Source of the DNA: Cystobasidiomycetes sp. EMM_F5
Taxonomy: Eukaryota
Direction of reading: 5' to 3'
Assembly: GCA_051047955.1 (NCBI GenBank)
Contig: JBPGPT010000017.1
Span: forward strand, 248,001 to 312,000
DNA length: 64,000 nt
Both the position numbers and the translations under genes were made by a program. The notes under the pieces were generated by a model, which saw nothing but the letters and a program-made list of their open reading frames with translations, searched no databases and was not told the origin of the DNA. Positions 6,178 to 63,370 of this stretch are shown piece by piece. The stretch's first letter is position 1. Each line of letters opens with the position of its first letter.

Positions 6178-8012
6178 TTACAACTTGGCTTTAGCAGCCT
6201 TTTCGATAAACGTTGCAGCTACATTCTTTCGCGATATTTTGCCGGTCGCGCCTTTCGGTATTGTATCGACAATCCATACTCTGATTGGCACCTTATACTG
6301 CGGATCATATGACTGCATTAGATCATGCGAGTCCCCGTAAGTAGAGGGGAGAGAAGTAATACCTTTGTCAATTTTTTAGATACCGCCTTGATGACATCTT
6401 TTTCAGACAATTTCGACCCGGATTTGCAGACCACGCACGCCCATACTACCTCTCCATACATCTTATCGGGTACACCAAATGACACAGCCTCCCCAACACC
6501 ATCGATTGAAAGAAGGGCGGAATCAACTTCCAGTGGGGATATCTTCTCTCCACCTAGGTAAGGACATATCAGCTCCCGACCCAATTATGAAGACTCCGTT
6601 ATAGGCGCATACTCCTGTTGATCAGTTCCTTGAGACGGCCGGTGAGGATCAGATAGCCATCCTTGTCGAATTTTCCTTGATCACCGGTCCTAAAGAAACC
6701 GTCCTTCGTGAAAGACTCCTTGTTCGCCTTGGGCTGACGCGACGATTGAGCCCGCCATTTTTTACCAACTCCAGAACGTACTCACATTGTTGAGATATCC
6801 CTTTGTGACGTTAGCACCCTTGATTGCGACCTCGCCTTCGGCTGCATCGTTACCATCGGCATCGACTGTGCGAACTAGAACGCCCTGTGGGATGCCGACT
6901 GTACCCGGCTTGCGCTTCTGTGGAGGAAGCGGCGAGCTAGTCATTTGATGCGCAGCTTCTGTCATAGCGTACGCCTCTAGGACAGGCGCCTGAAGTGCCT
7001 TTTCAAGATCGTGAAATGTTGTAGGAGACAAAGAGGACGAACAGGATCGAATAAAGCGAAGCTTGGGAATGGGTGAAGGTAAAGGAGAAGATAGTAGGAT
7101 CTGGTGAATTGTCGGTACGGCCGTGTACCAGTTGGACTTGGTCGAGATCAATTCGTCCCAAAACGTTTTTGCGCTAAATTTAGGAGGAATGACTACACTG
7201 CCCTTCGCAAGAAGTGGAGCGAGAAGACCAGCTTGGAGGCCGTGTACGTGAAATCCTGGCATGACAAGGTATGAGCGATCCTCTGGTGATAACTTGTAAG
7301 TATTGATAATATTCCAATGAGTAGCTAGCAAATTGGCGTGAGAGAGCGGGACGGCCTTGGGCCTCCCAGTCGTTCCAGACGTGTGTAGTAGCAAGGCGAT
7401 GTCCTCCTCGTTCGGATTTCCGCTATCTTGAATATTTTTGCTATGACCCGTCTTTCCGCCCGAAGAAGCTTGTTCCAACGCAATGACAGCTCGCTGTCTT
7501 CGCTCGTCGTACCATACTTCCGCAATGGCGACTTTGTGTTTTCGGGCAGCCTGTACTGCAGGCGCGTCATCCTTGATTGCGCCCTTGTGGACGAGCAACA
7601 GCTTCGATTTCGCGTCATCGAGGTAAAAAGAGACTTCGGAAGCGTTGTATGCGGGATTCAGCGGAGCCGCAATGCATCTGAAGTCAGTCAATGGTCGTCC
7701 ATGTAACGGAAGATATCGAGAAGTCAATATGATATGTTGGTATAGCGTCGGATTACCCGAAGGCGCCCACCTGTGCATCCCGGCAGCGATGAAGGCCACA
7801 ACGAACTCTGCCGAGTTGATGAGCGACATACTAATGACATCTTGCTCTTGCAGCAATCCCAATCCTGCCAGCTGTTTCCGAAAATCTTCAGTCGCTCCGG
7901 TCAGTTTAGCATGACTTATTGTGTCTGTTCGGCCTGCGTGTCCAGTAGCAGACGGCGGCAGGAGCAAGGCTGGCGCATCGTGCGTATGTAAGAGTGCTGA
8001 TAGTGTTGGCAT
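6178..8012 (-). CDS. PCS60: Peroxisomal acyl-CoA synthetase (oxalate-CoA ligase, Pcs60-like)
   Basis: AMP-binding motif [54 protein letters not shown]-terminus ...AAKAKL-stop (PTS1). Confidence 0.88.
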
Positions 8013-8356
8013 AATCCGGCAAGTTGGGAGGTCGTTGACAGAGACAAAGCAGATGAGGTGGTCAAGGCCTTGCTGATGATGTATATCTCCGTCATTATCG
8101 CAAGTAGTCTCAATGCGGGAATTAGAATAATTGCAAGCAATACAGGCTAATCTACATTACATTGAGATACACAAGGCAAATCAAGGTAGAAAGAAGGTGT
8201 CCGTAACATGAGAAGTCGAAGACGAAGAGGCGCTGTGATGCATGGAGACATGCCGGATGTGAGGCACGCGTCGGAAGAGGCGGACATGCAGCAGCAGCAG
8301 CCGTGCTCACGGACGCACAGCAAACTCCAAAGCTTGGCTGAAGCGGTGTCACCATT

Positions 8357-9814
<1,458 letters not shown>

Positions 9815-33931: not shown

Positions 33932-36900
33932 TCACGAGACTACCGCAGTGGCAGGTACGATTGCAGCTGTACCGTTCGGCATGGGAATGGCGAGGCTGGA
34001 GCGAATGTTGCCGAGGAGCAGTTTGACCTCGGGAGATTTGGCAACGAACGAGTAGCGGAAAAAGGCATCGTCCTGCATCATCTGGACGAATGTTGCGATA
34101 ATATGGTATGGGTGCGGGCGATAAGCGATGAGGCGCTCTAGCAAAACGCGCACAATCTGCTCTTTGGTGTACTCTGCAGTACCGTCGAGGGTGAATACAT
34201 GTAGTATCCACTTGCTGAACCAGTTGCTGTGCGCGTTCGGGTATCGGAGGTGCATAGCCATCGCGTTTAGAATCAGATAAGAACCCTCCGGATCGAGCTC
34301 CGAAATCAGATTCTGGAGGAGCGTGACAGCCGGTGCTGATGGCAGGAACGATGGCGTGCCCGTTTGTGCTTTACTCTGAGCGAGAGCAAAGCTGCAACAA
34401 AACATGACAATCGAATTGATCATCGGTTCGTTGTACTTGCTTTGACCGTTGCCAGCCGCAAGTATCTTGTCGGAGAGTTCCGTCGTGTTGCCCAGCTCTA
34501 CCGAGCGCTGCAGCTTGCGTTCTAGCAACTGTCTCACATCCATAGGCTGCAGGGCTTGTGCAAAGTCCGACAACAAACTCGGCGTTCCGTTGTTCTCCGC
34601 TGCGGCTTCGTCCCCGCGAGTGATTTGCAGAGGGTCCGGCAGCTTTGTCGAGAGGGGAAATGCACTCGATAGGAGATTGTGCAATTGTGTGCAGCTGGTC
34701 GGAATGACGTCGCTGAGCGAATAGTAATACACCGAAAGGAATTCTGGGAAGTCATGCAAGAGTACGAGCATGATTCGAAGGGTGCCGGTATAGAGTGTAC
34801 GGAGGGTGTCTGTGACTTCACCGTTGCGGAGGAAGGGAGCGAGGAAGCGGAGAAGAGAGATGAGAAGACGATGGAATGATGACCATCCCTCGCGGTCCTT
34901 CATGCCAAGCAGCTTGGGCATAAACATGCGGTGCGACACCAGAGCCATCCACGAAAAGGTGAAGCCACTGAAGTAGAGTGGCTGTAGGGTATTGATTGAG
35001 TGACTTAGCGTGACGAGAATCTGGTAGTACGCCGTGCCCAAATGCATTTCGATAGAATGAAGGTTGGCCAACAGACTTGAGAAAAAGCGGTAGAAGGGCT
35101 TCTGCTGGAAGTGAAAGCCAAGCTCTTCATGAGACTGCGCCAGAACAAGCACTACGATGGACAGGACTTTGCTCATGTATAGGACCTTGGCAGAATGATT
35201 GTTCTTGTTTTGAGGATCGGCATGATATTTGATCATGAATGTGATGAGTTTGGCGAAAGCATCTACCGGCTGAAATAAGCCGCCGACAGGAGTTGCACCA
35301 GCCGCTTTCTGCTTGATGTAGGCCTCGACACTGACTTCCGTACAGACGCGGAAGAACAGAGATGAAATCTCCTCGCCTTTGAGGATGCCTTGGTTTTGTA
35401 ACTGGACCACAAATTCGACAAATGATTTCTCAATCTGAAAAGATGATTGATAGATCCGGACCCATTCAACAAAGCACAGTGTGAGCTGCTCTCGAATGGC
35501 ATGATTATCATTCTGCACTTTGGTCGCTGCATCCTCAGTAGCAATGCTGCGCAGATCTTCCAGTAAAGGAGCAGCACTTGAAGGGTGTAGGGCAAGTCAG
35601 TAATAGATCAGCCGTGATCACACCTGCTATACGTACAGTTCTCCGCCCTTGCCAGCCTGTACAGCTTGCGCCAGCGCTCTCAGGGTGTGCGAGAAATGCT
35701 CTCGCGTTGCGATCGAGCGATCGCCTAGGAGACACTCCCGAATCAAGCGGGCCGCGAAGTTCACAAAGCTCGACTTGAATTCCCGCATGACAAATTTGGC
35801 GAGCTGCGTATCGTATTCGGCCACCGCAATGAATCCAGATTCGAGCAATAAAACGGTAACTGGCACGTTAAATTTGCGCTGTTCCAACAATCGTTGTTCA
35901 GTGAGAGTAAACCGCCCGGATTCGATGCGATCACCTACCTCATCGGGAGCATATATGAGCCACGCTGTCACTTCCTTGGACACCTTAGCGGTTATTTCGC
36001 AGAGCCGTTGAAGGAGAAGCACGAAAGCCTCGCGTGCCATTCGCGAATCGCTGCGATATAGCAATTGTACGACCTTCTGCGAAAAACCTAGAGTAGTTTC
36101 GTCCTTCACAAATGAGCGCGAAGCTGCTATGGGAAGCTGTCGTAGCACTCGGTGGACGTCGTGTTCGGCAGGTAAATCGGACAAGCTGACGAAGTCTGCA
36201 GCTTCCGCCTCCACGAAAGCCTTTTCGAGATCGAGCATAAGTTGTGTGAAAATTTCGGTCGCCTGTTGAGCTGTCAAGAGGCCACCCGGCGCCAGACCAT
36301 CCTGAGCGGCCGGGCTCGTGCCAATTTGATTTGCAGGTCCCTCTTCGGTGTTGGACTCCTTCTGCGGAGGGTACGAAGATGATGCACGCTGAGTAAAACC
36401 TCAGTCTTGCTCATCGTGTCATGCACGAAAACACTTACTTTCTCGAACTCCTCGTACACCAGCATCTGACTTGGCTGTAAACCGCCTAGCTTCAAGCGAA
36501 GCGGATCTGGCAGCATGCCAGAATAGTGTGATGCAGCCATAGCGGCAGTATCCCAGAAAGCTTGCGAAGATCGCTCGCGATGCTTGAGCCTTGCCATATA
36601 CGACGGTGCAAGGGCATCATCTACTTCCACGACAGCTCGGTCCATTGCCACTTTTTCAACGACCGAGCAAGCTAGATCCAGATTATCATTAGCAATGATC
36701 ATAACCGATTGCTCTGGCAGATTAAGCTGGGATCGCAAAGGGGGTCAGGGCAAGTCGTCAGTTCTGTAATTCCGACTCACCTCTGTAAAGCCGTTCTGAA
36801 GCAGCAGGGTTCGAAGATGGGTGACGATACTCAGACGCAGCGGCTCCTTGCATGTCACTAAAGCAAGGCTACCAGCCAGGTTCTGCACCATCAGGTGTGC

Positions 36901-39900
36901 AGCCTCGCGCATGCGCTCTTCATTCCCTTCCATCGCGAAGTCCTTGATTGCCAATTCGCGAGTAGAGATACCCGCTATTGTGACGGATCGCTCAACTACA
37001 GGCGCAATGATTTCTCGGACAGCACTGTCGATTCCTAGCTGCACAAGCCGCCTCAACGTAGTATTACTTGAAAAGCCAGATACGGGGACGGAGAAGGTGA
37101 GATACTGCGGTACGGTAGCGAGAGCAGCGGTGATGGCATCAGCCAGCGCCAACGAATAGCCCGCTGCTCCACCGCCTGACGACGAAGATCCGAGCAGAGC
37201 GATTCCAGACGGCAGTTGCGGCAGACGGCTCGCCTGATTCTGACTTGCTTCTCCGCTGGGAGTGGTAGATCGCGGGAATGCGGCGGTTAATACAGGCCTG
37301 TCTGCCTCGGGGACTACACCGCCGGTGCCACCTTCGGCACCGGCCTCTTTTGGAGGCCTAACTCGTAGGGTAGTAGTTGGCTGGATTTCCTTCAGATCAA
37401 TGTTGATGTTCTTGCACAATACTTCAATCTCGAACTTCAAGTTGAGTTTGAGTTCTGCAAAGTGGTACAGCTCAACGAGTAGACGGAGTATAGCCATAAG
37501 CCAGGGGTTCGGTGGCCGAAACACACGAGATTTGGAACACTGCTCTAGAACCTTGCAGACGAATGGTATCGCAACAATTAGTCTGTTTGAATCGTATCCC
37601 TGGATCAGCAAGTCCTTGAAAGAAACATTCTTATGCTTGATAGGCTTGTTTTTTGCGAGCGTTAGCGCTCCCAGCCAAGCTCCGAGATTTTTTAGAAGGG
37701 TTCTTTGGTTGCTCGACTGGACAGTCTGCTCCGAGTTGAGTAATTCTTCAGCTCGAATAAGCGTCTCCTGCAGCACCTCCTTGAAAAGCGGGACGATGTC
37801 TAGGGTATCGAGGAATTGCATGTATAGGTGGTGGTTGTTTGGTTCAATGCTGATGCGCTGATCGACGAGGTAATTTGCGAACCACCTCATATACGAAGAT
37901 TCGATTGCTTTTTGCATGTCGCCAACCTTTTGATCGAGGTTGGATAGTGCTAGATTGTTGATGATGAAGAGGATACGGTCCGACGTAGCTTCGTCTGGCG
38001 TTTCAGGCGTACCTCGGTCATGAGTAGGCACATCCGGCTTTAGAGCTGTGAAAATCTTGAAACTCTCGACAGCGGCATCTACTTCCGCTACAGCGGTATC
38101 GACAATGCCATTGTCTAGAGTAGTCGACGGAGTACTGAGCGCAGCCCGCGCAACCGCAGCGATGTCGGGGTGTGTTTGCGATAGATGCGGGACGTTAAGT
38201 ATCGCCTGAGCTAGGGATGGCCATTCGTGGAGGCGGGGAAGGAATCTTGAGAGAGCTTGGATTCCGAAGCGGAACCAGTTAGAATCGGGAGCATTGCGGA
38301 GGGCATCCAAGACGTAGCGAACGGCGATACCCAGCGGTATGTAGTCAATGAGATGATGTTGGATAAGCGAGCCAAATAGAGAGGCAGTGAGGAACAGCTC
38401 CTGCTGAGGGTATGTTGAAAAGAATTTGTATTCGTCGAACAGGCCATGAAGGAAGCATGCCAAAAAGTCATGATCGTGTGTGTTGTCGGAACTTTTAGCT
38501 TGATGAAGAAGCGTGACTACGTCATCTACGCTGATCTCTTGATCATACATACGCTTGTAAAAGCTGTCGACTTCTGCTTCGATGTCCGGTGTGAAGCTGG
38601 TTACACTAATGCCAGGTTCTTGCTCGGCGCCAGGCGCGAAATTCATGAGACGGGGATGCAACTGTAAGCATTGCGTTCGGACTTCTTTAAAGAGCTCGAT
38701 CTCCTCTGGACCGAATATTTCGTGACTGTAGAAACACATGTCAGTTTTCGATGCTGCGCTCTTTTTCAAACATGCACGTACTGTGCTCGTAAGGTTCTTA
38801 AGAAAGTCGCAATGGTTGAGGCTGTTAGGCTGACTGTCGTCGGGTCGGAAGCCTGCTGGACATCCTGATCTTGACGATTTAGATCGTGTCGGACTTTAGC
38901 ACCGACGAATTCAAGCGCTGCTCGTACAAACACGCTCCCGTGCGTAGCTACAGCAGATTCCAGCCATCGCTCGTCGTCAATGTACTCTTTGCGTCCGGCC
39001 AGGGCTGCAACATCCAGGGCATAGTAGTCTGGCGATGCCTCCAGGATGTCTCGCAGAAGCTTGAAGTCGTGGGCAATCTCGAGAACTCGCGTAACATTCA
39101 AACTGCGATGTAGTCGTCTGCTGTCAGCCGGTTCTGAACAGACAGAATAACCAAATGAAACGTACTCAGACAAATTGTAAAATTCCTTGAGCTTCTTTAC
39201 CAGAAGTGTCCGGTCATCCTTTGCAAGAGTATAGAACACAATGCTGCACGAAGGCGAGCCGGCAATGACCATGCTCAGCAATCGATCACTCAGGGCAATA
39301 GCCATTTGAGAAGGCGGCGTCTACAGATTAACGAATCAGCTTCACGCCGGACAAGGTCATAGACATGTGTGCACCTTCGATTTGAACATGCTCAACAGGA
39401 CGAGTTCCGGTTCTGCTTGACTCGCATGGCCAATAAGAGCCTGCACGCGCGCTTCTGGACTATGTGCTTCCGAAGCTTGTCCTGGTCCGGCCAGTGCCAG
39501 CAATGTAGGAACTAGACGAGAATTGTTCCAGGCGGAGAATAGCCGGATTCCTATATGTTCCGCTACAATATTGATTGTGCTTGTTTCGAGCTGCTTGTTA
39601 AACTCGGCATCGAGATCTTCTGGATAAATGACTGTAGCGGAGGGCGGCAGCGAGGTCGCTGCAAAGTCATAGTCACCGTAGACCAATGTTTCGAACAGCT
39701 CGACCTGCTGTGCTCCTCGCTTGAATGACTGCCAGAGCGCGTTGATAGGGGCAAAATTGAAATTGTTTGTCTGAGCTGATAGCAACGTCTGAAGATGGTG
39801 AAGCTCGTCCGGTCGAGCATCACTGCAATGGCTCTCAATAGCTTCTCGGACGGTAGTTGCCCAGTCTATATCCTCGATAGCTGCATCTTGGGCGCAACTG

Positions 39901-51405: not shown

Positions 51406-51556
51406 CGTCACGAAAGCGAAAGTCGTAAAACTCTCACATTTTGCGAACTGCAGGTTACCTGTCTCCCATCGCAAACTTTGCTGCACTTGAACCTGCACGC
51501 ATACCCAGTTTTCAAGACTCCCACACACATTCACACATCACTCGTATTCTTTCATA

Positions 51557-53803
51557 ATGCCAAAGGCCGTCGGTATTGGTGAGTAACGGCAAGCCACTTT
51601 TGGGCGGTAGAAGGCATGGTGCTGACACCTCTCTCTCTCTCTCTCTCATAGATTTGGGTACTACCTACTCCTGCGTTGGTGTCTGGCAAAATGACCGTGT
51701 CGAAATGTGAGTTGCATGAATCTACTCTGCCGTCATAGAGGGCCCGTGCCTGACCAAATTTTTGTAACACAGCATTGCCAACGACCAGGGCAACCGAACT
51801 ACACCATCCTACGTTGCTTTTAGCGACACTGAACGTCTCATTGGTGATGCCGCCAAGAACCAGGTCGCCATGAACCCCGTCAACACCGTCTACGATGCCA
51901 AGCGCATGATTGGACACAAGTTCTCTGACCCAGAGGTTCAATCCGACATGAAGCACTTCTCCTTCAAGGTCGTCTCGAAGAACGGTGACAAGCCAGTTAT
52001 TCAAGTCGAGTACAAGGGCGAGACCAAGGACTTTACTCCTGAAGAAATATCCGCGATGGTTCTGCTGAAGATGAAGGAGACTGCAGAGGCCTTCCTCGGT
52101 GGAAACGTCACTGAGGCAGTCGTCACCGTCCCAGCCTACTTCAACGACTCTCAGCGTCAAGCTACCAAAGATGCTGGTTCCATTGCCGGCCTCAAGGTCC
52201 TCCGTATCATCAACGAACCTACTGCAGCTGCCATCGCTTACGGTCTCGACCGCAAGGGAGAGTCCGGCGAGAAGAATGTGCTCATTTTCGATCTCGGTGG
52301 TGGTACATTCGATGTTTCCCTTTTGACGATCGAGGAGGGTATCTTCGAGGTCAAGGCTACTGCTGGTGACACGCATCTCGGTGGTGAAGATTTCGACAAT
52401 CGTCTCGTCAACCACTTTGTCCAAGAATTCAAGCGCAAGAATAAGAAGGATCTTTCCGGCAACCCTCGTGCTCTGCGCCGCCTTCGCACAGCATGCGAGC
52501 GTGCAAAGAGAACTCTCTCGTCTGCTGCTTCCACATCCATCGAGATTGATTCTCTCTTCGAGGGTATCGATTTCTACACTTCCATCACCCGTGCCCGCTT
52601 CGAGGAGTTGTGCCAGGATCTTTTCCGTTCCACCATGGAGCCAGTCGAGAAGGTACTCCGTGACTCCAAGATTGACAAGAACTCCGTCAACGAGATTGTC
52701 CTCGTCGGTGGATCTACCCGTATCCCTCGTATTCAAAAACTCGTATCCGACTTTTTCAACGGCAAGGAGCCAAACAAGTCTATCAACCCAGATGAGGCTG
52801 TCGCTTACGGTGCTGCAGTACAAGCTGCCATCCTGACTGGTGACACCTCTGAGAAGACCCAGGAAATTCTCCTCCTCGATGTCGCGCCGTTGTCAATGGG
52901 TATCGAGACTGCAGGAGGTGTCTTCACTGCCCTAATCAAGCGCAACACTACTGTCCCGGCCAAGAAATCCGAGACCTTCTCCACCTATGCCGACAACCAG
53001 CCCGGTGTACTTATCCAGGTCTTCGAAGGTGAACGTGCGCGAACAAAGGACAACAATCTGCTCGGCAAGTTTGAGCTGTCTGGTATCCCACCTGCACCAA
53101 GAGGTACTCCTCAGATCGAGGTCACGTTCGACGTCGATGCCAATGGTATCTTGAATGGTGAGTGGCACAATTGCGGAGAAATTTGGATGGATGGCTAATA
53201 TACTTGGTCGTTTACAGTACACGCTGCAGACAAGACGACTGGCAAATCGTCGAAAATCACGATGTAATATTTCTTTCATTTTCAAGCTTAACGTCTCATC
53301 TTGCTGACTTTGCTATTTTTTCTCTCTTCTTCCCCTCTTGCGCCTATTCATATAGCACGAATGACAAGGGCCGTCTTTCAAAAGAAGACATTGAGCGCAT
53401 GGTCTCTGAGGCGGAGAAGTACAAGGCCGAAGACGAGGAAGCTGCAGGACGCATCAGCGCCAAGAACGGTCTCGAATCTTACACCTACTCCCTACGCAAC
53501 TCTGTGGAGGGCGATTTGAAGGACAAAATCCCAGAGGCGGACAGGGAGAAGATTCTCGCTGCTGTCAAGGAAACTTCCGAATGGTTGGATGCTTCGCAGG
53601 AAGCCTCAAAGACCGAATACGAGGAAAAGCAAAAGGAATTGGAAGCAATCGCTAATCCCGTCATGGCGGCCGCGTATGGAGCTGCTGGAGGTGCACCTGG
53701 AGGAATGCCAGGAATGCCAGGCGCTGGAGGAATGCCCGGAGGTGCTGGGTTCCCAGGTGGAGCGCAGAAGTCCGAAGACATTGATGTAGAAGAAGTCGAC
53801 TGA
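51557..53803 (+). CDS. HSP70: Cytosolic Hsp70 (Ssa-type)
   Basis: [64 protein letters not shown] repeats, C-terminal EEVD. Confidence 0.98.
51629..51647 (+). repeat. (CT)9 microsatellite forming the polypyrimidine tract of HSP70 intron 1
   Basis: CTCTCT... tract lies between the GCTGAC branch point and the AG acceptor. Confidence 0.85.
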
Positions 53804-56366: not shown

Positions 56367-58166
56367 ATGCCGTCTCAGGCCAAGATGTCGAGATCCATTC
56401 TGGATACGGATCTGTACAAGCTGACCATGCAGGTGCGACCGGTCTCGATGACGCGCAGGGCTGCTGTTTACGTCAAGGCTGAGGCTGGCGTGACTTCCTA
56501 GAATGCCGTACGAATCTGCTATCCCGATGCAAAGGTCACGTATCGCTTCAAGAACCGCTCCGCTTCAATGCGTTCCAACGCAGAGGCATTCGCGTACATT
56601 CAGGACGCCATCAAGGCTATGGACAACATGCGTCTTACGCCAGAGGAGAAAGGATGGCTCACAATGACATGCCCTTATTTTCCAAAAGAGTACCTCGACT
56701 TTCTATCGACATTTGAGCTGGACAGCAGCAAACAAGTCAGGTTAAAATGGGAGGACGACGGAACCGGGTTTGGCGATCTCGACATCGAAAGTGAGCAAAT
56801 CATCCTGTGCATGTCTCCGCATATCTAAAGTAAGGCCGTTGTGCTCTTAGTCGAGGGCCTCTGGAAAGAAGTCATCCTGTATGAAGTACCTATCCTGTCC
56901 ATCCTTAGCGAAGCGTACTTTCGCTTTGTGGATAAGCATTGGGACTATGTTGGTCAGAGACTGGCTGCAAAAGAGAAGGGGATGGAGCTACTGCGCGAAG
57001 GGATCGTCTTTTCGGAATTCGGAACACGCCGGCGGCGCAGCTATCACGGACACAAGATCGTTATGCAAGGTCTTATCGACGCTCGTAATCACCTTACCGG
57101 CGATGGCACTCTCCGTGGTAAATTGACGGGCACAAGCAATGTCCACCTGGCGATGCTGTTCAACGTTAATCCCGTCGGGACAATTGCTCACGAATGGATC
57201 ATGGGTGAGGCCGTAGTGACCGGAAAATGTCGCATGTGGTAATGTATGCTCTTCCCAGGCATTGCGGCTATGGAAGGTTACGAAGGCTCGAATGCATTGG
57301 CAATGAAGACCTGGGAGAAGGTGTATCCCGGAGGAGCGCTACGAGTTGCGCTGACTGATACCTTTTCAACAAAGCGTATGCTTCATTCCGCTCAAGCACA
57401 ATCTGATTTCCGCTGATATCTCGCCAAGCGTTCTTTGATGATATGAGGGCAAATCCTGATTTGCCTAAAACATGGAATGGCTTGCGGCAGGATTCCGGTG
57501 ACCCATTCGAATTCATACACGTTGCTATTGGCATGTATAAAGAGCTAGGGATCGATCCATCTACGAGTGAGTGGAGACCTGTTTCCGGTGAATAGCCTGA
57601 GCTCATGCTATGAATCGCAGAGAACATTGTCTTTTCCGATGGTCTGCACGTGGACAAGGCAGTCAAGCTAGCCGCCGCTGCGAAGCAGGCAGGCATCGGC
57701 TGCTCGATGGGAGTAGGGACTTTCTTCACTAATGACTACAGATACAAAGAAAGCCCAGATCCCGATAATTCGGAGGGAGAGGGAGACGTTGCTGAGGGTC
57801 CAGTCAGCAAACCTATGAATATGTAAGACTTTTGTGACGATTTGCCTTTGCGATCACTGAAGACTGAGGTGGTGATGGCACACAGCGTGATTAAGCTGTA
57901 CAAGATCAACGGCATCCCATGCGTCAAGATCTCTGATGAGATGAACAAGGTCAGGCGGTTCCCACTCGCAGCGAGCTGACATATCCTGATGCAGCCATTC
58001 TTGTATTACAGGTTATGGGCGAGAAAGACGCTGTGGAGATGGTGCGACAGAGGCATGTGTCTTTCTTGGTCCATGTCAGAACATCAGCTAACACCATTTG
58101 TGCAGATTCGGACTGGACAAGGGTCAAGTCCTCGCAGGTCAGCCACAAATCGTGCAGGCGACGTAG
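56367..58166 (+). CDS. NPT1: Nicotinate phosphoribosyltransferase
   Basis: SILDTDLYKLTMQ, ILYEVPILSILSEAYF, FSEFGTRRRRS, GTSNV, GTIAHEWIMG, ALTDTF, GLRQDSGDP, IVFSDGL, GVGTFFTND, KPMNIVIKL, VKISD. Confidence 0.95.
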
Positions 58167-58307: not shown

Positions 58308-61300
58308 ATGCGGGCAGCTGGCCTGGTGCTACTGCTGCTGAGTGCATTACCGCCGCTGATCACTGCTGTCAAGCGGCAGGACTTCAAGACTTGTGCACAA
58401 GCTGGCTTCTGTAGGCGCTTGCGAGACTTGCCGGTAACGACGGGCTCTTCCCCATATTCTTTGGACCCAAAGAGTATTGCATTTGATAGTGGGAGCAGCA
58501 CACTCAGCGCGGCCATCCTATCGTCCATATACCCAGAAGCCAAGTTTTCACTGCAGTTGGCCGTCACGAAAAATGGACTTGCCAGGCTCAAGATTGATGA
58601 ACTCGCAGGCCTGCGACAAAGGTACAATGAGACTGCACAATGGGTCTTGGTGAAAGAGCCCGAATTATCGACCAGTACAGTCTACAAGAAGGATAAAAAT
58701 GGCAAAGGGAGCACGCTATCCTGGGAGACTCGAGGTGGTCACCAGCAGCAAGCCAGAATTACATACAATCCGCTCAAAATCGATTTTCTACGCGATGGTA
58801 CGGTGCATGTGGCCTTCAACGACCAGAATCTCTTCCACATGGAGCACTTCCGTGTAAAGAATATCGGAGTAGACCAGCAAGATCCGCCGACAGCCGTCAT
58901 TGATGATGGTGTAGTTGCCGCAAGATCCCAATTCGAGCCTTTCACGAGCGAGGATGGGGCTTGGGAGGAAACGTTTGGATCTAATACAGACTCTAAGCCG
59001 AAAGGTGCGGTTGTCTGAGATTCAACTTCAAAAAACTTATACATGGATCGCTCTTCCAGGACCAGAATCCATCAGTTTTGATGTAACTTTCCCCGGGTAC
59101 GAGCACGTATTTGGCATTCCGCAGCACGCTAGCCCTCTGTCCTTGCGTACTACTCGGTATGTGATATTCGTCTGACATGCACCGCTAAACCTGAAATTTT
59201 GTCGTCAGCGGGGGTGATGGAGCCTTCACAGATCCCTATCGCCTATACAACGCCGACGTGTTCGAGTACGAAGCTGATTCGGAAATGTCCATATACGGAT
59301 CTATCCCTTTCATGCATGCTCACAAGGCTGGCTCAACCGTAGCTGTCTTCGATGTGGTTGCGAGCGAGACTTGGATAGACATTACAAAATCGTCAAAGTC
59401 AACACATACGCACTGGATGTCTGAGTCCGGCATTTTGGACTTGTTCGTATTCCTTGGCCCGACCACAGAGGACGTTTTCGAGACGTACGGCCAATTGACG
59501 GGGACGACCGCCCTGCCACAGATGTTTGCGATCGGTCACCACCAATGCCGATGGAATTACTTAAATCAAGAAGACGTGGCAGAGGTTACACGTAAATTCG
59601 ATGAACACGACATTCCGTTTGACGTTATTTGGCTAGATATCGAGTATGCGAAAGAAGTAGGTTTGGAGGGCTACCGGGTTTATGGTCTTGACACTGAGGA
59701 AACATTGTTACAGCACGAATACTTCATTTGGGACCGCGCACATTTCCCCAAACCGGAAGTGATGCAAGATGCTCTCGCTGCAGTGGGTCGGCAGCTAGTC
59801 GCCATAGTCGACCCGCATATCAAACGCGACGATGGTCTATACGTCTACAAAGAGGCTCAAAGTCTTGGTATACTCAGCAAGCAACCAGACGGTGTGACAG
59901 AATACGAAGGGTGGTGTTGGCCCGGGTCTTCGGCGTGGGTGGACTGGCTAAACCCAGCAAGCTGGCAATGGTGGACTGGCCTATTCAAATTTGACAAGTT
60001 TGTGGTATGTTAACGGGCTTAGTCTCGAAATAGACAGCACTCAAGCGGCTTTCTGCTTGTATTAGGGTTCTCGCCCAAATCTCTACATTTGGAACGATAT
60101 GAACGAGGTGACCAAATCCCCTTGCTTACAGCAGTGCGCGGGCTTACGATTACGATCACTTCTAGCCTGCTATATTCAGCGGGCCAGAGATATCAATGCC
60201 TCGCGATAACGTGCACTACGGCGGATGGGAACATCGTGACGTACATAATATGTTTGGGATGCTCTACGTAGGTCTTTCTGCGATCCTATTTGACGCCGCC
60301 TTCACCTAATGTCTCTTTAGCACAACATCACGTCACAAGCGTTGATTGCTCGCGAACAACCTGCCAAAAGACCATTCGTTCTCTCGCGTGCGTTCTTTGC
60401 AGGCTCCCAACGCTTTGGATCGATATGGACTGGCGATAATATGGGGACATGGGACCATCTTGCTGGGTCAGTTCCGATGATCCTTGGTAACAGCGTTGCA
60501 GGAATGGCATTCAATGGCGGTAAGTTGGCCTGTAGAATGTAAAACGATCGATCATGGTAGACTGACAGGCCTCGTAGCCGACGTTGGCGGGTTCTTTGGC
60601 AATCCTGAGCCTGATATGCTCGTGCGCTGGTATCAGAGCGGGGCCTTCTATCCATTCTTCCGAGCTCATGCGCATATCGATACAAAACGTCGCGAACCAT
60701 ACTTGTTTGATGAACCGATCCGCGGTTATCTCCGCGATGCCATTCGTCTGCGCTATTCCCTTTTGCCGGCATGGTATACAGCCTTTTTCCACGCCAGTCT
60801 TAGCGGAACACCCGTTATTAGACCTCACTACGTCGCCTTTCCCCAAGATACCAACGGTTTCGCTGTTGATGATCAGTTCTTCGTCGGTACTTCTGGTCTT
60901 TTGGTACATCCCGTTGTGCGGAAGGATGCTGAAGATGCATCAGTCTACTTAGCAGACGACGAAGTAGGTGACTCACTTGACAGGATGAACGTGCATGCTG
61001 ATGGCCCTTTGCAGCCGTATTACGATTATCACACACACGACGTGTACATGGGTGGCAAAGGCAGTAGCGGAAGTCGTATAAGTGTTCCTGCGCCGCTGTC
61101 AAAGTTACCTCTGTTTCATCGTGGGGGTTCGATCACTACTCGACGCGACCTAGTGCGACGCGCCGCCCCATTGATGTGGCGTGACCCGATATCTCTGGTG
61201 ATTGCACTGGACAGATCTGGGTCCAAAGCAGGTGGAGATATCTACATGGATGACGGATCATCATACAGCTATACTACCGGACAACTTATTTGGCGGGCTT

Positions 61301-63370
61301 TCGAACTCTCTGCGGCAGGAGACAAGATATTCTTGAGGTCGTCAGACCTGGTCAAGAAGTACGATGGTCTGAACGAAGACTTTTTAGCCGTTGCTGCAAA
61401 CTATGATCGCCATAACAAGTTTGCCCAGTCGATCAAGACAGTCATGGTAGATGAGATTACTATACTAGGCCTGAAAACGCAACCGTCGTGCATTCGCTCG
61501 GGCAGCGGTCAGACTGGTCTAGCTCACACGTGGAATGCAGGTCTCGCCTCAAACGCGGGCAAGCGCAAGTCCGGCGGTAGGGCAAGTATACTGCGCATAC
61601 ACGCCGCAGGCCTTCCAATAACGGAAGACTGGGAAATTATCATTGAGCTTGACCCATCTAGAAGATGCAGCGCTGCGCAGGCTTTGGTTCAAGCAGTTTC
61701 GCTCGAGGATCCGACTTGCCCTGGACCTGGGCAAGCCCGCTGCCGTAACGTTGGCCATATCTCTCAATGCCTGCTCATCAGCCGCGTCAATGACGGAATT
61801 TGCGATCCAGAATGCTGTGACGGCTCTGATGAGACCGATGGCAAGGTCCAGTGTCCTAATGTCTGCGCACAGTTGGCGAAAGAACACAAGGCAAAGGCCG
61901 ATGCAGAGGCTCGCGTACAGCGGGTTGGCGCAAAACTTCGTAAAGAATGGTCGATTTACGGCATGAAGGAAAAACGCAAATTGGAGAAATCCCTCGCTAA
62001 GCGCCGCGAGGAGACTGCTACGTTGGCCCAACGAGAAAGAACATTGAAAATCGTACTAGAAAAGCTAGAGAAAAGCGAGGCCAGCGACATTGAACGAAAG
62101 AAATCCAGTACTTTGTATAAGAGGCTGGAAGAACACAGAGAAGCTCTGACATCGCTGCGGAAACAGCGCACTCACTTGCAATCCCAGATTGGGGATCTTC
62201 AAACCCTTCTGTCTGACCTCAAGACTTCGTTCAATCCAAATTATCAGGACATGGCAGTTCTTGGAGCAGTGCGTGCATTCGATGACTGGCGCAAGAAGCA
62301 CGCCTACGAAATCACTGAAGAATCGCCCGTCGGGCGGGGCGAAGCCGACTCTGCTGAAGGCGACACTGCAGTCGAAGAAGTACAGCCAGCAACGCTTGAT
62401 TTCGATGAGATTTCAGACGAAATTCTTCTTGCGATGGAGGGAGAAGACTCGCTCAACCTGATTAGCGAGTTAGATGCTACTTCTATAGCCGACGATGCAA
62501 CCAGCATGCGTGAGACGGCAATTCTCGGATCAGGTCGCACCGTAACTGACACGAGACGTTTCTCCACACAGTCTTCCGTCTCGAGGAGTACTTACCTGAC
62601 AGCCTCCGACCCCATTACGAGGGCATGCGCAAATCTCTCCTGGACGTGCTTACCAATTTCGGTCTCATTTCAAAGACTGTTGTCGAGAAGAGCGAGCGCC
62701 CTGATGTCTCAAAAGCTCGCACAACATACCAAGATGCAGAGCGATCTTTGCGAGACAATGAACGCCAAGTGTCCGAAAACGAGGCATCGCTGAAGAAAGA
62801 CTGGGGAGCCGACTGGGCATGGAAAAAGCTGGAGGGCCAATGTATCGAGAAAGAAGCTGGAGAATATGTGTACGAGCTCTGCTTCTTTGATAAGGCATCC
62901 CAACGATCAAACAAAGGCCATGGTACGACAAATTTAGGGTGAGTGACGTAGCATGCGCTATGACAAAAACGTGTGTTTAATGTTATGCTATAACAGCAAC
63001 TTTGCCAGTTGGAACACAGCTGCGTCAGTAGGTACACCGGAATACTACCTGAAACAGTCGTATGAGAACGGACAGAGGTAAGCATACCTGAGTTTGGTGA
63101 GGCGAGTTGGATCTGATGAATAATATGCAACATTCAGGTGTTGGAACGGTCCAGATCGATCCGTAGCTGTGGAGTTCATCTGCGGCACTAGTAATGCGTT
63201 ACTTTCTATAATGGAGCCGTGAGTCAGGCTCCTTACGCGGCGAAGCAATATGCTAACATTTTGCTTCCAGCGAAAAATGCACTTATTTGTACAAAGTGCA
63301 GACGCCTGGCGTATGTGTTGAGCCCGCTGTACAGGGGAGCGACGAAGACAGTCACTCGGACGAATTATGA
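58308..63370 (+). CDS. Glucosidase II alpha (GH31) - beta (PRKCSH, LDLa-like + MRH) fusion protein, ER-luminal
   Basis: Signal peptide, then [15 protein letters not shown], catalytic WNDMNE and [21 protein letters not shown]. The frame continues without a stop into CRNVGH...[18 protein letters not shown]...CPNVC, a coiled coil, [10 protein letters not shown] and the MRH domain ([28 protein letters not shown]...TPGVC), ending SDEL-stop. Confidence 0.9.

Follow-up and report, generated by a model that had tools for sequence, protein, structure and literature searches.

Is glucosidase II always assembled from two separately encoded subunits, or can it be made as one chain? The question is raised by a gene on the plus strand of a 64,000-nucleotide (nt) stretch of DNA from the fungus Cystobasidiomycetes sp. 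EMM_F5 (assembly GCA_051047955.1, contig JBPGPT010000017.1, positions 248,001 to 312,000 of the forward strand). This whole stretch is called the window, and all coordinates are counted from its first letter. Two earlier papers (PMC3103398, PMC7585303) present glucosidase II as an obligate heterodimer, in which the beta subunit provides retention in the endoplasmic reticulum (ER) and presents the glycan, and in which contact between the G2B domain of beta and the alpha subunit is essential. An initial annotation of the window, made from its letters alone, had instead read a single gene at 58308..63370 in which the alpha (GH31) and beta (PRKCSH/MRH) parts are fused. We conclude that, very probably, an old gene fusion lets this Pucciniomycotina fungus encode its ER glucosidase II as a single chain, which would be retained in the ER.

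Gene structure and the alpha-beta junction

The spliced model of the fused gene spans 58308..63370 (+), has 13 exons and 12 introns, and specifies 1461 amino acids (aa). Introns were placed by eye and then checked by script, with tblastn alignments of two fused homologues (P0151 and P0003) as a guide, and the region 58359-63270 is colinear with both. The model begins with an ATG at 58308 and ends with a stop codon at 63368-63370, directly after HSDEL, and the span first proposed for the gene is exact. All 12 introns are of the GT-AG type and 51-62 nt long, and the spliced frame has no internal stop. Exons 1-7 lie at 58308-59004, 59060-59156, 59209-59656, 59714-60004, 60066-60107, 60166-60267 and 60321-60519, and exons 8-13 at 60578-60963, 61015-62509, 62572-62938, 62997-63077, 63138-63218 and 63271-63370, all on the plus strand.

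The point where the two parts meet lies between residues 964 and 965 (base 61644/61645), within the 1495-nt exon 9, and coincides with the end of the last strand of the alpha distal C-terminal domain. That strand (residues 958-964, 61624-61644) is followed by 31 codons (61645-61737) and then by RCRNVGH, from 61738. In the list of open reading frames (ORFs), the open frame 60514-62793 (+) likewise runs from the GH31 end directly into beta sequence, while the other two forward frames are riddled with stop codons across 61500-61900. None of the donor sequences GTAAGT, GTGAGT and GTATGT occurs within 61550-61800. The alpha strand therefore continues into beta in one frame inside exon 9, with no stop, second signal peptide or gap, just as the initial annotation had described; its estimate of about 25 aa for the linker was too short, as 31 aa are measured (61645-61737).

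Domain searches give the same picture. The Pfam families for the GH31 TIM barrel, the GH31 C-terminal region and the PRKCSH-like region were all detected on a single window ORF, and the ORF that follows it downstream carries the MRH-type families. A public NCBI gene model (P0294; 1481 aa), named 'glucosidase II [Cystobasidiomycetes sp.]' and belonging to the same 90% cluster as the window ORF, carries six families above their cut-offs (PF13802, PF01055, PF21365, PF12999, PF13015 and PF07915), so that the Pfam scan proposed as a check does place the GH31 and PRKCSH families on one protein. All 1461 aligned residues of P0294 and the spliced model are identical, and the only differences are two insertions in the public model, one of 3 residues and one of 17. 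At intron 7 (60520-60577) it uses an acceptor 9 nt upstream, which adds 'GLV', and it treats the in-frame, 51-nt intron 8 (60964-61014) as coding, which adds 17 aa. Since both insertions are absent from the homologues compared (5/5 at the 17-aa site, 3/3 at the GLV site), P0294 is probably 20 aa too long.

Contigs from public sequencing runs cover only parts of the window, and only those that bridge the junction are counted as evidence here. One such contig (151 nt) comes from run X1 of a phyllosphere metagenome; it shows 0 differences from 61597-61745 and reaches 48 and 101 bases to either side of the alpha end. Contigs from a second phyllosphere metagenome (run X2) match 61483-61633 and 61691-61841, with 1 difference. 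A fused ORF of 1527 aa (P0176, present on 40 contigs, and P0285) was found on contigs of only 4793-5696 nt; its motifs WLDMNEP and WQGDN and its RDEL end are rust-like. As an uninterrupted ORF of 4.6 kb fills contigs that are barely longer than itself, we infer that these contigs represent the spliced mRNA of a rust-like relative.

The alpha part, the linker and the beta part

The chain starts with a signal-peptide-like segment (58308..58370, +), the sole such segment that direct reading of the sequence reveals. A hydrophobic N-terminus ahead of a VKRxDFKTC motif is present in 37/37 long homologues, again as read from the sequence rather than by a signal-peptide predictor. The GH31 N-terminal galactose-mutarotase-like domain (residues 82-322, 58551..59380, +) includes introns 1-2 and was identified by PF13802 (E 6.3e-44 on P0294, with partial matches on window ORFs). 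It is followed by the TIM-barrel catalytic domain (residues 366-694, 59510..60783, +; PF01055, E 1.1e-108), with introns 3-7 inside. A motif search located WNDMNEP at residue 520, split by intron 5 (60090-60168, +), and WTGDN at residue 595 (60426-60440, +); we take WxDMNEP to hold the nucleophile Asp of GH31 enzymes and WxGDN the acid/base Asp. Across the fused chains, W.GDN is found in 38/38 and W.DMNEP in 33/38.

Downstream of the barrel lie the proximal C-terminal beta-sandwich (residues 702-794, 60805..61134, +; PF21365, E 1.1e-17), which contains the in-frame intron 8 (60964-61014), and the distal C-terminal domain (residues 806-964, 61168..61644, +), which ends in EDWEIII. Evidence for the latter comes from an AlphaFold model, from fold matches and from the end point of a conventional stand-alone alpha subunit (P0012, 976 aa), which stops at the position equivalent to the alpha end in the window. 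An Arg-Arg pair at the start of the distal domain (residues 802-803) is conserved in at least 90% of the fused proteins, its identity with a published pair being uncertain. In sequence comparisons with the PDB, the top matches of the alpha part are both glucosidase II alpha (5dkz_A and 5dkx_A). The closest-structure comparison for alpha, which covers its C-terminal third, was made with Foldseek, and the fold of the distal domain is best matched by 5dl0_A and 5jqp_A, then by mouse and human glucosidase II alpha, with other GH31 proteins also among the matches. By its domains and motifs, the alpha half is an ordinary GH31 member of the GANAB/Rot2 type, with the activity that this predicts.

Alignment of the fused sequences marks the 31-aa linker (residues 965-995, 61645..61737, +) as a relic of the first LDLa module. 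Two alignments were used, one of the window with 28 fused sequences (29 in all) and one of 34 rows (A1). The 29 sequences show a DW(D/E)I strand at the alpha end, then about 30 residues with a conserved Cys and L(Q/E)(S/D)PxCP, and then (F/Y/R)CxNxGHxPxC. The LQSPxCP element aligns with GTSACP of 11 stand-alone betas, which is the end of their first LDLa module. Missing from the fused forms, when compared with these 11 proteins, are the signal peptide, WKCLDGS and the NDDYCDCPDGSDE calcium site. The motif DG[ST]DE accordingly occurs exactly once in 38/38 fused chains and twice in 11/11 stand-alone betas, and the match to PF12999 starts at profile position 75 in the window and 69 in P0176, compared with 16 in a stand-alone beta. 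A1 shows no variation at W960, C989 and C997 or anywhere in the CCDGSDE block; the linker cysteine Cys989 (61717-61719, +), within LEDPTCP, is thus conserved in 34/34 rows, while the columns of the other linker cysteine, Cys972 (61666-61668, +), and of Cys1006 are at least 90% conserved.

The second LDLa-like module of the G2B domain (residues 996-1039, 61738..61869, +) corresponds to profile positions 75-170 of the 176 in PF12999. It carries an extra cysteine, Cys1006 (61768-61770, +), that of the GHxPxC motif, which the alignments show in 28/29 fused sequences and in 0/11 stand-alone betas; this suggests that a disulfide may have been rewired. A charged, probably helical region follows (residues 1040-1180, 61870..62292, +), recognized by its composition (18 K, 15 R, 15 E and 18 L in 141 aa) and its colinearity with stand-alone betas; it is the putative 'coiled coil' of the initial annotation. 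Next come an acidic region (residues 1190-1250, 62320..62502, +) with 19 Asp+Glu against 1 Arg in 61 aa, and the MRH lectin domain region (residues 1308-1446, 62736..63322, +), with introns 10-12 inside, which was identified by PF13015 (E 2.7e-27) and PF07915 (E 4e-12) on P0294 and in part on the window ORF. The chain closes with HSDEL, an HDEL-type ER retrieval signal, and the stop codon (63353..63370, +), and 33/37 long homologues have an xDEL or xEEL C-terminal end. The MRH domain and the terminal SDEL read initially from the DNA are therefore both borne out.

Matches of the beta part in the PDB (5jqp_B 102-161, 5f0e_B 40-87 and 7jty_B 86-236) begin with residue 86 of human beta and with index 40 in a mouse fragment of 88 residues. 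No hydrophobic N-terminus follows the junction in the beta part. Of the features that define a stand-alone beta subunit, both the two-module G2B domain and the separate signal peptide are missing here; the MRH domain, with predicted mannose binding, and an HDEL/KDEL-type end are both present. Judged from these alignments, the beta moiety is one that lacks a signal peptide and the predicted Ca-binding half of LDLa module 1, the module itself being a degenerate linker. The proposal that beta is fused to alpha thus holds for LDLa2 and the MRH domain, which are on the same chain, but the beta so joined is N-terminally truncated (PF12999 from position 75 of 176) rather than complete.

Within each part, the order of domains is the same as in the known heterodimeric glucosidases II (GANAB/PRKCSH of mammals, Rot2/Gtb1 of S. 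cerevisiae, Gls2-alpha/Gtb1 of S. pombe and that of Chaetomium thermophilum, 5dkx and 5jqp). The alpha part shares the GH31 N-domain, the TIM barrel, in which WNDMNEP and WTGDN lie, and both C-domains (proximal and distal), and the beta part shares LDLa2, the charged helical region, the acidic region, MRH and the HDEL-type end. Unlike the heterodimer, the window enzyme is specified by one gene as one chain, its beta part has no signal peptide, LDLa1 is replaced by the approximately 31-aa linker without DGSDE, and LDLa2 has the extra Cys. Stand-alone betas of the sister subphyla Ustilaginomycotina and Agaricomycotina, such as P0216 of Violaceomyces and P0223 of Coniophora, show 38-46% identity to the window over LDLa2 and the helical region and are colinear in MRH. 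They are 520-620 aa long and, unlike the beta part in the window, each have a signal peptide and a pair of DG[ST]DE modules. The fused models P0158 of Rhodotorula toruloides (1499 aa) and P0003 of Microbotryum intermedium (1508 aa) have an architecture, linker pattern and xDEL end like those of the window, and named relatives outside the window's own clade share at most 50% identity with it.

Distribution and origin of the fusion

Is the fusion confined to this organism? A search among long proteins returned 49 homologues, of which 37 carry PF01055 and PF12999 together (GH31 plus PRKCSH) and 12 lack the combination. The fused proteins are similar in size, 35/37 being 1398-1564 aa long, with the exceptions of a truncated Melampsora model (1240 aa) and an over-extended Mixia model (2122 aa). 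All but one of the 37 have a named source, and all 36 of these are from Pucciniomycotina genera, including Rhodotorula, Sporobolomyces, Rhodosporidiobolus, Microbotryum, Phenoliferia, Pseudohyphozyma, Meredithblackwellia, Mixia and Atractiella, as well as the rust genera Puccinia, Cronartium, Melampsora, Phakopsora and Austropuccinia. Checks of this placement covered Mixia, Atractiella, Meredithblackwellia and Phakopsora, and the remaining genera are taken by us to be Pucciniomycotina also. The fusion was first put forward as a trait of 'this lineage'; it is indeed present here, but far from being private to this fungus it extends across the Pucciniomycotina. Record names for the protein are inconsistent, and range over 'glucosidase II', 'GH31 protein', 'Glucosidase 2 subunit beta', 'Glucosidase 2 subunit alpha' and 'hypothetical protein'. 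The Mixia osmundae model (P0153), which has an extra HLH domain (PF00010) and no xDEL end, probably runs into the next gene.

When 1.84 billion cluster representatives were scanned without a profile, 15 of the 150 best matches (P0001-P0010, P0014, P0015, P0017, P0022 and P0042), among them the full-length, 1508-aa protein of Microbotryum intermedium, align with the window in one stretch across the junction. Recurrence in homologues, single stretches of alignment across the junction and a conserved linker together rule out that the ORF is there by chance or that the assembly is locally in error.

Separate subunits were sought in the same databases. A search with the beta part among proteins of 451-2000 aa gave 444 matches, and among the best 120 of these there is no named stand-alone beta from Pucciniomycotina, all named entries from that group being long fused chains; the survey of relatives suggested at the outset thus finds the fusion recurring and its separate counterpart absent from those matches. 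The named stand-alone betas in the same 120 (520-620 aa, without GH31) come from Ustilaginomycotina and Agaricomycotina, the placement of Violaceomyces having been checked. Named stand-alone alphas were seen only in Cantharellus, Agaricus and Parajaminaea, among 18 matches to the alpha C-terminal region, which makes this a weak test. One odd protein, P0197 of Mortierella polycephala (1294 aa), has PRKCSH without GH31 and is about twice the usual length of a beta subunit; its branch in the tree described below is very long (3.09).

A maximum-likelihood tree of the beta part was calculated from 60 rows in a quick IQ-TREE run, with the Mortierella protein as the distant row. The 44 rows that represent fused forms make up one clade (SH-aLRT 97), from which the betas of Ustilaginomycotina (99) and those of Agaricomycotina are separate. 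Within the fused clade, the window joins 11 environmental fragments in a group (99) to which neither the rusts (100) nor Mixia, Atractiella or the Microbotryomycetes belong. A further stand-alone beta (P0267) is grouped with betas of Tremellomycetes. Five classes of Pucciniomycotina are represented, counting the Cystobasidiomycetes label of P0294. With one clade of fused forms and five classes within it, the simplest reading is that a single fusion event would have preceded the divergence of these classes.

Alternative readings, function and significance

The alternative with most in its favour, although we think it unlikely, is that a fused precursor is cut in the linker, with alpha and beta then staying together as two chains through LDLa2 docking or a disulfide. 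A dibasic site is available in the window (Arg-Arg, in SRRC) and in one rust linker (Lys-Arg), but these are 2 of the 29 fused linkers, in which no conserved cleavage site is evident. The conserved linker cysteines could join the cut chains, and the linker is modelled with middling confidence (block means of 69-76 in the AlphaFold2 model described below); its conservation, on the other hand, resembles that of a folded LDLa1 relic. Kex2-type proteases work beyond the ER, and the protein bears an ER retrieval signal, which speaks against its meeting them.

Distinctly less probable again is the production of additional separate chains, whether of alpha alone, through an alternative 3' end, or of beta alone, through initiation at an internal start; the stoichiometry would then be unfixed. 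Nothing directly favours this reading. Beta lacks its own signal peptide, and the first Met past the junction lies beyond LDLa2 (MKEKRK), so that a product started there would be cytosolic; an alpha-only form would lack the retrieval signal, and the junction has neither an intron nor a strong donor. That two neighbouring genes were merged by an assembly or annotation error has next to no probability, for although merged models are common in fungal annotation and that of Mixia appears over-extended at its 3' end, the junction frame here is continuous within one exon, a terminator, a promoter and a signal peptide would not fit into 31 codons, the 60-80 N-terminal residues required of an independent gene are missing from the beta part, and the same junction and conserved linker recur in 37 long models and many contigs of different origin, including the independent X1 contig that bridges the junction with 0 differences.

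The single-chain enzyme of common origin remains the preferred reading, and several points weigh against it or against parts of it. The single mRNA and the uncleaved chain are, for this organism, predictions from DNA. The sequences would likewise predict that the product is translated as one chain and escapes cleavage, that it acts both as an enzyme and as a lectin, and that the fusion arose once, at the base of the subphylum. The tree is a quick version and not a careful search. The protein searches were word-index searches of which the best rows were used, and a stand-alone subunit of Pucciniomycotina could be missed by them; for a second alpha or beta gene in this organism, the search covered the 64-kb window. 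The exact W.DMNEP motif is missing in 5/38 fused chains (P0171, P0173, P0177, P0183 and P0184). These five keep W.GDN, and either a gap in the gene models at a small exon or real variation is possible. Lastly, an AlphaFold2 model of residues 800-1045, built from the 34-row alignment, has a mean predicted local distance difference test (pLDDT) score of 80.7; the means of 10-residue blocks are 83-97 in the distal domain (model residues 11-170) and fall from 76 down to 44 over the linker and LDLa2, so that no particular docking or disulfide pattern is supported.

The surroundings of the gene in the window are those of ordinary eukaryotic housekeeping genes, with no link to the glucosidase II fusion. 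A neighbourhood scan found an AMP-binding enzyme (6762-8156, -), a cyclin-dependent kinase (CDK)-like protein kinase (8495-9223, -), the CCR4-Not subunit Not1 (33932-38895, -) and, just upstream of the glucosidase gene, a nicotinate phosphoribosyltransferase (56982-57242, +). A remnant of LDLa1 elsewhere in the window was sought by tblastn with 9 stand-alone betas; a weak, recurrent match at 8826-8864 (+; best E 0.45) is antisense to the CDK-like kinase gene and was put down to chance. Another ORF, at 51552-52892 (-), matches PF10712 ('NAD-specific glutamate dehydrogenase', E 5e-82) and is antisense to an Hsp70 match at 51768-53198 (+; E 7e-219). PF10712 is a family known to arise from the antisense frame of Hsp70 genes, and the minus-strand ORF is therefore probably not a gene.

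How would a one-chain glucosidase II work? The single N-terminal signal peptide would direct the entire 1461-aa chain into the ER, where N-glycans would lose their two inner alpha-1,3-linked glucoses to the GH31 part. At the opposite end of the chain, the MRH domain would bind the mannose arms and bring the glycan to the active site, a role that the separate beta subunit plays in other organisms, and the C-terminal HSDEL would keep the whole enzyme in the ER. With alpha and beta joined covalently, the retention of alpha and a 1:1 stoichiometry would be independent of non-covalent docking. In S. pombe, changing either of two G2B residues, one per LDLa module (E73A or E114A), abolishes the alpha-beta association and lowers the level of alpha in the ER (PMC3103398). 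The loss of the beta signal peptide and of the Ca-binding half of LDLa1 is consistent with a covalent tether having replaced docking: the tether may have taken over the holding of alpha, after which LDLa1 could have decayed to a disulfide-containing linker while LDLa2, the helical region, MRH and the HDEL end were kept.

Whether the fusion had been reported before was left open by the initial annotation. Public gene models do show it, one of them covering this same sequence, but no description of a natural alpha-beta fusion was found in open-access full text or in bioRxiv, and it is apparently undescribed in print. Taking the broader claim as a whole, we lean, with rather less assurance than for the gene itself, toward the view that the fused form is the only glucosidase II in all Pucciniomycotina, from rusts to anther smuts and red yeasts, and that it arose once at their base, shed half of its G2B domain, had its cysteines rewired, and has gone undescribed in print.

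The fusion of interacting subunits is a familiar evolutionary mode, and the enzyme described here is not a new kind of system. For annotators it is a caution, as the same protein is filed under conflicting subunit names, and for experimental work it may offer a 1:1 construct for full-length structural studies and glyco-engineering. It would also show which parts of beta serve only to hold alpha, namely the signal peptide and LDLa1, which appear to have decayed once the tether existed. If the broader claim is true, the fusion would be a clean rare-genomic-change marker for Pucciniomycotina, a discrete character in support of their monophyly, and a natural single-chain form of an enzyme that has always been described as a heterodimer.

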